A stretch of 47,670 bases of DNA, from the IMG/VR virus record IMGVR_UViG_2718218130_000001; one strand, written 5' to 3'. A program made the position numbers. The stretch is from a virus (lineage: Duplodnaviria > Heunggongvirae > Uroviricota > Caudoviricetes). Positions 45,001 to 47,670 of this stretch are shown one piece after another; the first letter of the stretch is position 1, and every line of letters starts with the position of its first letter.

Positions 45001-47670
45001 ATTACGTCCTTCAGTTATGCCAATGCTGAGGATGAGCAAAAAACGCGCTACAGCGATACCCGCTGGCATGAAGATTCCGTGCGTAACCGCTGGTTCAGCG
45101 TGATGGCGGGGCCGTCTGTACGCGTGAATGAATGGTTCAGCGCGTATGCGATGGCGGGTGTGGCTTACAGCCGTGTGTCGACTTTCTCCGGGGATTATCT
45201 CCGCGTAACTGACAACAAGGGGAAAACGCACGATGTGCTGACCGGAAGTGATGACGGTCGCCACAGCAACACGTCTCTGGCGTGGGGAGCTGGCGTGCAG
45301 TTTAACCCGACCGAATCCGTGGCCATTGATATTGCTTATGAAGGCTCCGGCAGTGGCGACTGGCGCACTGACGGCTTCATCGTGGGTGTCGGCTATAAAT
45401 TCTGATTAGCCAGGTAACACAGTGTTATGACAGCCCGCCGGTTCAGGCGGGCTTTTTTGTGGGGTGAATATGGCAGTAAAGATTTCAGGTGTACTGAAAG
45501 ACGGCACAGGAAAACCGGTAGAGAACTGCACCATTCAACTGAAAGCCAGACGTAACAGCGCCACGGTGGTGGTGAACACGGTGGCCTCTGAAAATCCGGA
45601 TGAAGCCGGTCGTTACAGCATGGACGTTGAGTACGGTCAGTACAGCGTTATTCTGTTGGTGGAAGGGTTCCCGCCGTCACATGCCGGGACCATCACCGTG
45701 TATGAAGATTCTCAACCGGGGACGCTGAATGATTTTCTCGGTGCCATGTCGGAGGATGACGTCCGGCCGGAGGCACTGCGTCGTTTTGAACTGATGGTGG
45801 AAGAAGCGGCGCGTCACGCTGAGGAGGCGAAGAAGAATGCCGGAGAGGCGGAGACGTCCGCGAGGAATGCCGGCATATCAGCCAGTCAGGCAGAAGAGAG
45901 CGCGGCAAATGCTGACACTTCAGCAGGGGATGCATTGGAGTCAGCCCGGCAGGCGGCAGAAAGTGCAGCCGCTGCAAAGCAGTCAGAGGAGGCGTCCTCG
46001 TCCTCGGCTTCTGCGGCCGCTCAAAAAGCCAGTGAGTCATCACAAAGTGCAGCAGAAGCTGAATTGTCAAGAAAGACGGCAGAAAGTGCAGCCGGTAATG
46101 CAGCCAGGGATGCAACGACCGCAACAGAAAAAGCCCGGGAGTCAGCAGAAAGCGCACAGTCAGCGGAACAAAGCAGGATAGCGGCGGAAGAGGCCGTAAA
46201 CCGAATCCCCACCGTGGTGGGACCTCCCGGGCCAAAGGGGGAACAGGGGCCCGCGGGTCCTCAGGGGCCGAAGGGTGATAAGGGAGAGCGCGGTGACACC
46301 GGCCCTGTCGGGGCAACCGGCGAACGGGGACCGGCAGGTGATGCTGGTCCGGCAGGCCCGCAGGGGCCGAAAGGTGACAGGGGAGAGCGGGGAGAGACCG
46401 GTCTGACGGGAAATGCAGGTCCACAGGGTCCAAAGGGAGATACCGGTGCGGCAGGCCCGGCAGGCCCACAGGGACCGAAAGGAGAAACAGGTGCGGCTGG
46501 CCCGGTGGGGGCAACCGGACCTCAGGGACCGAAGGGCGACCCGGGGGAGACACAAATCCGTTTTCGTCTGGGGCCGGCGAGCATTATTGAGACAAACAGC
46601 AATGGCTGGTTCCCGGATACAGATGGCGCACTCATCACCGGACTGACCTTTCTTGACCCCAAAGATGCCACACAGGTTCAGGGGCTGTTTCGGCATTTGC
46701 AGGTCAGGTTTGGTGACGGGCCGTGGCAGGATGTTAAGGGGCTGGATGAAGTGGGCAGTGATACAGGCAGAACAGGAGAATGACATGAATATACTAAAAA
46801 AACTTATGCAGCGTCTGTGTGGTTGCGGAAAGCATGATGGCCGTGAACACGGGCAGTCGCTTACAGCACAACTGCGACTGGGGCCGGCAGACATCCTGGA
46901 GTCCGATGAGAATGGTATTATTCCGGAGCAGGACAGGGTAATCACGCAGGTGGTGATACTGGATGCGGATAAAAAGCAGATACAGTGCGTGGTAAGACCG
47001 CTGCAAATCCTGCGTGCTGACGGGACGTGGGAAAATATTGGCGGGATGAAGTAACCCGACAGCTTCACAAAACCGGAGTCCGGCTCCGGTTTTTGTGTTG
47101 CAATGTCCGGGGGATATTTGTTAGGTAGATTGTATTGTATGTAAAGGCAGAGCTCCGAATTTTACTGTTGTAAGTGGGCCTGGCGGGAATGGTATCGCCA
47201 GCATCATTGGCTTGGGTCCAGTAAAAAGAGACGCAGAAAGATGCACAATAGGCACTACGCGTCATGCATGGATTAGGTCGCTCATTATTTACACAGTACT
47301 GCTAAAAAATTATTAAGGAAAGCGCGGCACTTCGTATGTAAGAGCGTGTCGCGGTTGGCTGGTGAACTTTCGATAGTGCGAGTATTGAATGATTTCCAGC
47401 CGTTACCGATTTACGTGTTTATTAGCGAACAAACCACTCGTCAGCAGACTCCCAGGTATCTTTCAGCGTCTCCTGAACAAAAGTTTTAGCTGAATCTTTA
47501 TCGGCGGTGCGCGTAACAGAAAGGCCATCGTTGCTGGTGGCTTTTACGATCACCTCTACATCGTCATAACGTTTACTGATGCGTCGGGTTAATTCTTCCT
47601 TTAACGCATCCACAGCACCGTTTGGCATTTTAGTGATTTTTTCTTTAGCGATACAGATCTCAACACGCAT

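Follow-up and report, generated by a model that had tools for sequence, protein, structure and literature searches.

A two-gene side-tail-fiber module of enterohemorrhagic Escherichia coli lambdoid prophages: a collagen-like fiber and a separately encoded paralogue of its tip

The EPclA type of prophage tail fiber was named in enterohemorrhagic Escherichia coli (EHEC) by Ghosh et al. 2012 (PLoS One 7:e37872; PMC3368898), and a gene of this type, here called stf, lies near the right end of the stretch of DNA analyzed in this study, the 47,670 nucleotides of IMG/VR virus record IMGVR_UViG_2718218130_000001 (the window), where it is followed by a small open reading frame (ORF) that encodes a second copy of the fiber's C-terminal domain. 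The locus is the known two-gene side-tail-fiber module of EHEC lambdoid prophages, and the question that we address is what the small protein does. The published biochemistry was performed on the EPclA copy ECs2717, EPclA copies being more than 90% identical, and Table 2 of the same study lists the copy ECs2941 of prophage Sp15 with 437 amino acids (aa), of which 116 belong to the PCoil domain and 111 to the collagen domain. Recombinant EPclA is trimeric and appears in the electron microscope as a hinged dumbbell of about 55-60 nm; its collagen tract is a real triple helix melting at 42 C, and its PCoil is a trimeric coiled coil by SEC-MALLS (size exclusion chromatography coupled to multiangle laser light scattering) and circular dichroism (CD). 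The N-terminal domain (PfN) alone is mostly monomeric and the C-terminal domain (PfC) alone is a trimer, which enables fast refolding of the collagen helix after melting and which was kept in the recombinant Col-PfC fragment of that study (PMC3368898).

The small ORF also belongs to a described gene family. From the Shiga toxin 2 (Stx2) phage Sp5, Mondal et al. 2016 (PMC5155283) removed almost every gene of unknown function, and their supplement gives deletion primers for ORF68 alone. ORF67 (ECs1228), a 645-aa collagen fiber, was essential, and ORF68 (ECs1229), an 89-aa polypeptide that corresponds to the phage fiber C-terminus domain, was among the non-essential late genes; the authors found no programmed-frameshift signal and suggested that ORF68 is an "intragenomic reservoir sequence" for fiber variation (PMC5155283). 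For phage phi24B, cryo-electron microscopy (cryo-EM) and proteomics have been reported in a 2026 bioRxiv preprint (doi 10.64898/2026.04.10.717836), in which the shaft of the lateral fiber gp61 is collagen-like and the small domain at its C terminus (aa 568-644) was not resolved by cryo-EM and had no confident AlphaFold model.

Stf of the window meets the EPclA domain order throughout. The gene (45470..46783, including the TGA stop; all coordinates are those of the window, on the plus strand unless stated otherwise) encodes 437 aa from the ATG that RefSeq also uses. A preliminary description of this DNA had started it at 45464, which is a GTG two codons 5' of the real ATG. The lambda-like N terminus that was recognized there is indeed a PfN, the prophage tail fiber N-terminal domain (aa 1-133, 45470..45868; PF08400, E 8.7e-69), and aa 1-93 match a chain of PDB entry 9e7m deposited as 'Tail fiber protein' (E 4e-52). 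The low-complexity Ala/Ser/Glu tract is also present (aa 134-250, 45869..46219; A 38, S 22, and E 16 of 117 residues), but it is more than the linker for which it had been taken, as the corresponding PCoil is a trimeric coiled coil in EPclA (Ghosh et al. 2012). An estimate of about 37 uninterrupted G-X-Y triplets proved to be exact (aa 251-361, 46220..46552; PF01391). The C-terminal domain, a domain as described, is shorter than the 75 aa or so assigned to it: the PfC tip proper has 64 aa (aa 363-426, 46556..46747; PF06820, E 6.5e-36, model positions 1-64 of 64), and the remainder is an 11-residue acidic tail (the DEVGSDTGRTGE region, 46748..46780) that has no counterpart in the small ORF in the alignments. 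A Pfam scan gave no match of Stf to PF13884, the Peptidase_S74 domain.

By its sequence, stf is another copy of the already published EPclA fiber gene, with nothing material differing, and by the EPclA experiments its tip would double as a trimerization and collagen-nucleation module. The fiber may be pictured as a homotrimer in which PfN is tail-proximal, a hinged shaft about 50-60 nm long is built from the Ala/Ser-rich coiled coil and the collagen helix of 37 triplets, and the C-terminal PfC trimerizes, nucleates collagen folding, and forms a distal knob, presumably the part that touches the cell surface.

The small ORF (46785..47054, ATG to TAA) encodes a stand-alone PfC protein of 89 aa, a homologue of Sp5 ORF68 and of phi24B gp59, and matches phrog_576 of PHROGs over 89 of 89 positions (E 2.3e-60). 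It consists of a basic, Cys/His-containing N-terminal extension (aa 1-27, 46785..46865) and a PfC domain (aa 28-89, 46866..47051; PF06820, E 5.3e-36, whole model). The Stf tip and the small ORF reach nearly the same score against PF06820 (123.0 and 123.2 bits, both end to end on a model of 64 positions whose curated gathering cut-off is 25 bits). In a direct BLASTP comparison they share 25 of 62 residues (40%; E 9e-16), and their Smith-Waterman score of 116 compares with 23 +/- 4 in 5000 shuffles, none of which reached it (z = 22). The preliminary description had called the product of the small ORF a paralogue of the fiber's own C-terminal domain and had proposed pairwise and profile alignment as the check, and both kinds of alignment bear this out. 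Its remark that no canonical tail fiber assembly gene follows stf holds as well. At E <= 0.01, PF06820 was the only Pfam match of the small ORF, with no match to Tfa/Caudo_TAP or to Gp38_N (PF21721), so that the small ORF is not a member of the Tfa or Gp38 family; it likewise had no match in NCBIfam or in PADLOC, a library of defense systems. On its 3' side there are only a terminator hairpin and a DinI-like gene on the opposite strand (47422-47670, minus strand).

No PDB relative of PfC was found by sequence search. An AlphaFold2 (AF2) monomer model of PfC, built on an alignment of 8 sequences, was all beta with a predicted local distance difference test (pLDDT) score of 56; a poor monomer model is no surprise should PfC fold only as a trimer. 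A metal site or a lipoprotein signal in the CGCGKH motif of the N terminus of the small protein was considered and rejected, since Cys14 is not conserved (of 73 copies, 12 have Tyr there and 1 has His) and the N terminus, as read, has neither the hydrophobic core of a signal peptide nor a credible lipobox.

The junction between the two genes is tight. The stf stop codon (TGA, 46781-46783) and the ATG of the small ORF at 46785 are separated by 1 nt, and an AGGAG read as a Shine-Dalgarno (SD) sequence lies within the last stf codons (46774..46778), 6 nt before the ATG. This arrangement of AGGAG and TGA-C-ATG suggests that translation of the small ORF is coupled to that of stf, in which case the small protein would, like the fiber, be a late product of infection. 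The small ORF is in the +1 frame relative to stf (GGA GAA TGA C ATG). As a way of joining the two, a +1 frameshift fusion at the stf stop codon was rejected on the junction sequence, where no slippery heptamer and no shift-prone codon could be read, and on the report of Mondal et al. 2016.

For the conservation of the small ORF we used two samples of 80 IMG/VR loci, one picked on identity to the PfC of the small ORF and one on the Stf tip. Picking on the small ORF biases its nonsynonymous divergence (dN) downward; the measurement was repeated on the tip-picked sample, and the ratio of nonsynonymous to synonymous polymorphism (pN/pS) was taken for each segment from whichever sample was unbiased for that segment. 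In the sample picked on the small ORF, its ATG stands exactly 1 nt after the stf stop in all 68 loci in which both genes could be read. In the tip-picked sample, 79 loci had enough downstream sequence; an ORF starts at the 1-nt position in 77 of these, an intact 89-aa small ORF is present in 73, and 4 are frameshifted or truncated. The pair stays together behind fibers of EPclA length (~437 aa) and of EPclB length (649-682 aa), and the collagen tract of intact related fibers ranges from 15 to 38 triplets.

The PfC domain of the small ORF has a pN/pS of 0.07 (pS 0.139, pN 0.0098), with 14 of 36 changes being nonsynonymous where neutrality predicts 77% (binomial p 1.4e-6). The values are 0.31 for its 27 N-terminal residues, the most variable part (18 of 28; p 0.041), and 0.25 for the PfC of the Stf tip (20 of 36; p 0.003). 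A simple comparison of these counts shows no significant difference between the small PfC and the tip (Fisher p 0.24); what sets them apart is allele frequency. The Stf PfC varies at aa 370-371, 378, 383, 396, 402, 406, and 408, and its replacements at aa 370-371, 378, 402, 406, and 408 are intermediate-frequency alleles, while those of the small PfC are all rare except D50A. Purifying selection of this strength on its PfC domain marks the small ORF as a protein-coding gene that is functional, with a PfC domain at least as constrained as the fiber tip itself.

These data bear directly on the suggestion, one of three made in the preliminary description, that the small ORF is a duplication remnant, a non-functional passenger hitch-hiking behind stf. 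Such a remnant would be in line with the lack of a reported laboratory phenotype for the Sp5 deletion and with the many truncated or chimeric copies in databases. It is refuted by a pN/pS of 0.07 at a pS of 0.14, by the intactness of 73 of 79 copies, by the invariant SD and junction, and by the peptides of the phi24B homologue described below, and the copy number given in the next paragraph also speaks against it; we consider it extremely improbable.

Of 5426 complete E. coli genomes, 698 carry the small gene, in a median of 11 copies each, and all copies are at least 90% identical. In 5.8 billion proteins, its matches fall into 177 clusters at 90% identity, of which those with a named source all come from E. 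coli, E. albertii, or Citrobacter rodentium, and a profile search of 1.84 billion representative proteins returned 95 matches, nearly all of them E. coli-type fragments; PfC is a narrow family and for this reason unfit for covariation or deep-alignment work. In C. rodentium (loci L083-L086, 3479-4237), PfN is joined directly to PfC in a stub of 161-166 aa, without coiled coil or collagen, and is followed by a small ORF of 78 aa; this remnant adjoins nleG-type effector genes and lies near a lymphostatin-like gene. The C. rodentium orthologue is unsuitable for an estimate of dN/dS because it sits in a decayed remnant. The only non-enterobacterial-looking relative that we found is P0140 (locus L168, 3505-5202), a 565-aa metagenomic protein with collagen G-X-Y tracts and four tandem segments that resemble the C-terminal half of PfC, with the repeat VVVLDAD...GILQVRRADGTWxEIPALKG (AF2 pLDDT 35).

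Mondal et al. 2016 saw in the small gene a reservoir cassette, a spare tip that would be moved onto the fiber by recombination or frameshifting and would alter its specificity, and the preliminary description had similarly listed an alternative tip among its options and had proposed a search for tip swapping across related prophages. The placement of a tip paralogue right behind the tip fits this idea, and the region is highly mosaic: across the sites equivalent to window positions 46400-47054 (loci L003-L167), linkage disequilibrium (LD) falls to background within about 30-60 nt, which implies intense mosaic recombination or gene conversion among prophage copies. There are also rare chimeras in the databases, such as P0063, a collagen tract fused in frame to a small-type PfC, and P0146, the N terminus of the small ORF fused to a tip-type PfC. 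Together with P0057 and L087, these ORFs join collagen or the small-ORF N terminus to the PfC of the other paralogue, and they could be real illegitimate recombinants or assembly artifacts at repeats; the 3.3-kb contig of P0063 starts within the collagen repeat, so that this chimera may be an artifact.

However, the tip and the small ORF share 54% DNA identity with a longest exact run of 11 nt, which makes them a poor substrate for homologous exchange, and the two types are distinct at 40% aa identity, each being nearly uniform within itself. The 120 best small-type matches among the 5.8 billion proteins do not exceed 131 aa, which means that there is no full-length fiber among them, and an in-frame fusion of a fiber to a small-type PfC, as tip swapping would leave it, occurs in 0 of 160 loci. 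Moreover, a silent cassette would keep neither an SD and ATG of its own nor so low a pN/pS, the protein is translated in phi24B, and the +1 frame comes without a slippery motif at the junction, in agreement with Mondal et al. An alternative tip is not supported by these comparisons, and we regard a reservoir function as very unlikely.

Evidence for the protein itself is available from phi24B. In the proteome supplement for the purified phage, the peptides ADGTWENIGGMK and VITQVVILDADKK have 3 peptide-spectrum matches (PSMs) each and map only to gp59 or to hypothetical gp61-gp59 fusions, and both are present identically in the small ORF of the window. Fusion entries were held in the search database and the text reports no fusion; the authors annotated the gp59 entry with "Spike or just gp59?" (doi 10.64898/2026.04.10.717836). 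The gp61 fiber has 2267 PSMs, and by our own calculation gp59 amounts, per residue, to about 2% molar of the fiber protein. The protein is made; in the virion preparation it is either a non-stoichiometric component or a contaminant. The expression of the small ORF, on which the preliminary description had made its interpretation depend, is borne out by these peptides of the homologue at trace level in phi24B virions. For targeted mass spectrometry, LGPADILESDENGIIPEQDR is a further peptide of the small protein besides the proteotypic ADGTWENIGGMK and VITQVVILDADKK.

The same data weigh on the possibility of a stoichiometric distal adhesin, in which a trimer of the small protein would be fixed permanently to the Stf knob and would be what actually binds the receptor, as Gp38 does in T2/S16-type fibers. 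The recovery of peptides from a purified virion preparation favors it, as does the equivalent position of the Gp38_N adhesin in Stx2 phage 86, and, judging from the two sequences, the acidic tail at the C terminus of Stf could be a docking site for the basic N-terminal extension. A share of about 2% molar in phi24B virions is difficult to reconcile with such a structural role, however, and the protein is not needed for Sp5 infection of K-12. The pattern of variation also points the other way, as the small PfC is the most conserved part of the module, and the Stf tip holds the intermediate-frequency variants expected of a receptor-contacting surface; nor did the Pfam scan of the small ORF reveal Gp38_N or any other attachment domain. 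A permanent adhesin is, in our view, quite unlikely.

We tentatively favor, giving it somewhat less than an even chance, the interpretation that the small protein is a dispensable late accessory, non-structural or transiently bound, that acts together with the PfC-tipped fiber. The small ORF is a working gene that arose long ago as a duplicate of the Stf PfC domain and has since diverged; its product might form a PfC-type trimer of its own and act in trans on the fiber, and as a non-structural helper or transient tip partner it might improve folding or solubility or protect the tip. In a more specific variant, which we consider unlikely, a duplicated trimerizing tip has become a new fiber accessory, the free PfC trimer docking head-to-head or via its basic N-terminal arm on the Stf knob as a detachable cap or adaptor. 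There it would protect or tune the surface that binds the receptor, which would explain at once the conservation, the probable co-translation, the sub-stoichiometry, and the dispensability on rough K-12.

As to the third option of the preliminary description, a chaperone derived from the tip domain, the small protein is not an obligatory chaperone, because recombinant EPclA and isolated PfC trimerize in E. coli without it (Ghosh et al. 2012; PMC3368898) and because ORF68 of Sp5 is non-essential; it could be a non-obligatory one.

Several observations weigh against an accessory role in general. The trimerization of EPclA and PfC by themselves is one of them. Sp5 ORF68 is not merely non-essential, it is also not among the mutants with lowered or raised plaque or lysogen counts on K-12 (PMC5155283), although K-12 in rich medium need not reveal such a role. 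The trace peptides of gp59 could come from contamination, the AF2 monomer prediction is uninformative, and the interaction between the small protein and Stf is itself a proposal. Between the tip and the small ORF, no covariation beyond the effect of distance was seen (r2 0.040, compared with 0.044 for collagen-to-tip pairs, at 80-250 nt), in a test of limited power. Finally, gene J of the window is frameshifted, as described below, and the module may for that reason not be used by this element itself.

The right end of the window is, by its sequence, that of the Stx1 prophage of E. coli O157:H7 at yehV/btsSR, of the Sp15 / CP-933V / VT1-Sakai type, because the 1.9 kb around stf and the small ORF are 99.9% identical in DNA to phage VT1-Sakai and 100% identical to many E. 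coli O157:H7 chromosomes, and because the identical sequence in E. coli strain FORC_044 lies at the right end of a prophage adjoining btsS/btsR (yehU/yehT). The gene order in FORC_044 is L, K, I, J, and lom, followed by the stf/small-ORF sequence. In the window, the tail tip gene J (41266-44738) is split into overlapping ORFs (41215-42441 and 42318-44738), and in FORC_044, whose sequence is identical, RefSeq treats it as a pseudogene with a frameshift; a prophage with a split J probably cannot build an infectious tail by itself. After lom and directly 5' of stf there is a terminator-like hairpin (45432..45453; an 8-bp stem with 7 G-C pairs, then a T run), and by analogy with lambda biology stf would be reached only by anti-terminated late transcription. 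A second hairpin (47066..47100; -23.1 kcal/mol, z -4.3, then a U run) is a predicted intrinsic terminator that closes the stf/small-ORF pair.

Related Stx2a phages have the type III effector gene nleC between the small ORF and the DinI-like gene (for example in L002, 3156-5191), and in other relatives the small ORF is followed by nleH/cif, nleA, or nleG; here, positions 47055-47670 hold the terminator and the DinI-like gene. The stf/small-ORF pair marks the left border of an exchangeable effector locus. This setting suggests yet another reading, namely that the small protein functions away from the fiber as a late or lysogenic 'moron'-type protein, in receptor masking, superinfection exclusion, or action on a host target. 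Its position between lom and type III effector cargo in related phages, the presence of cor in the same neighborhood of phage 86, and the confinement of the small gene to prophages of Escherichia and Citrobacter rodentium are consistent with it. On the other hand, a protein in which no signal peptide or lipobox could be read would hardly reach an outer-membrane receptor, no promoter-like site was seen on the plus strand between J and the small ORF, its start at the stf stop region points to co-expression with the fiber, and the PADLOC search was negative; we judge a role of this kind to be very improbable.

Elsewhere in the window, an Rfam ALIL pseudoknot (121 bits, 14239-14355, minus strand), which in IS3-family transposases is the frameshift element, points to an insertion sequence of that family within the prophage. 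A full-length match to the Rfam small RNA family STnc100 lies at 20724-20933 (177 bits, plus strand), and the lambda cIII thermoregulator RNA element at 7333-7391 (88 bits, minus strand) marks the early-left region of a lambdoid prophage. ARAGORN predicted an 83-nt tRNA-Ala (anticodon CGC) at 10792-10874 (minus strand), which is doubtful, as it is unusually long and has no Rfam tRNA match at the gathering threshold.

The collagen fiber type, the PfC family, and the paralogous small ORF were already known: the biochemistry dates from 2012, ORF68 was described, deleted, and discussed in 2016, and the paralogy between tip and small ORF was in print in that year. Pfam, PHROGs, and RefSeq already label both genes, RefSeq calling stf a 'prophage tail fiber N-terminal domain-containing protein' and the small ORF a 'phage tail fiber C-terminal domain-containing protein'. 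What is added here are the fixed 1-nt junction, the purifying selection on the PfC of the small ORF, the trace peptides of gp59, and the slot of phage 86 with its Gp38-type adhesin. The role of a small gene that is so abundant in each of the 698 genomes carrying it and under such strong purifying selection is a narrow question, and the window holds one of about eleven copies per O157 genome, in a prophage with a frameshifted J. The answer would clarify the assembly or targeting of collagen-type fibers in Shiga-toxin phages, which bears on the spread of stx and of type III effector genes between strains.

Compared with the described systems, Stf of the window resembles EPclA ECs2941 of Sp15 in its lengths (437 aa with 111 aa of collagen), its domains, its prophage type, and its chromosomal site. 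The small ORF resembles Sp5 ORF68, phi24B gp59, and phrog_576, all with 89 aa, PfC only, and an ATG 1 nt after the fiber stop; N-terminal residues 19-26 vary from allele to allele, and the setting of the small ORF is different, as it stands behind a fiber of EPclA length in a lambda-type prophage, whereas its relatives in Sp5 and phi24B stand behind 645-649-aa fibers in short-tailed phages. In lambda, the slot directly 3' of stf is taken by tfa. The Stf-Tfa pair of lambda and the gp37-gp38 pair of T4/T2 are like the pair in the window in that a small gene lies directly 3' of the fiber gene, is probably co-expressed with it, and is swapped together with the distal end of the fiber. The small ORF, however, has no sequence relation to Caudo_TAP/Tfa or to Gp38 and is instead a paralogue of the very tip that it would serve, and its family is dispensable where it has been tested, in Sp5. 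In Stx2 phage 86, the collagen fiber gp21 ends in a Peptidase_S74 chaperone domain rather than in PfC, and the next gene, gp22, encodes a Gp38_N adhesin domain (PF21721, E 1e-19) and is followed by cor; the distal end of the fiber and the gene behind it have therefore been exchanged together. Peptidase_S74 intramolecular chaperones, such as those of endosialidase and of phage 86 gp21, are like PfC a C-terminal element that drives trimerization of the shaft; PfC has no Pfam match to them and differs in that its second copy is encoded separately and not in cis.

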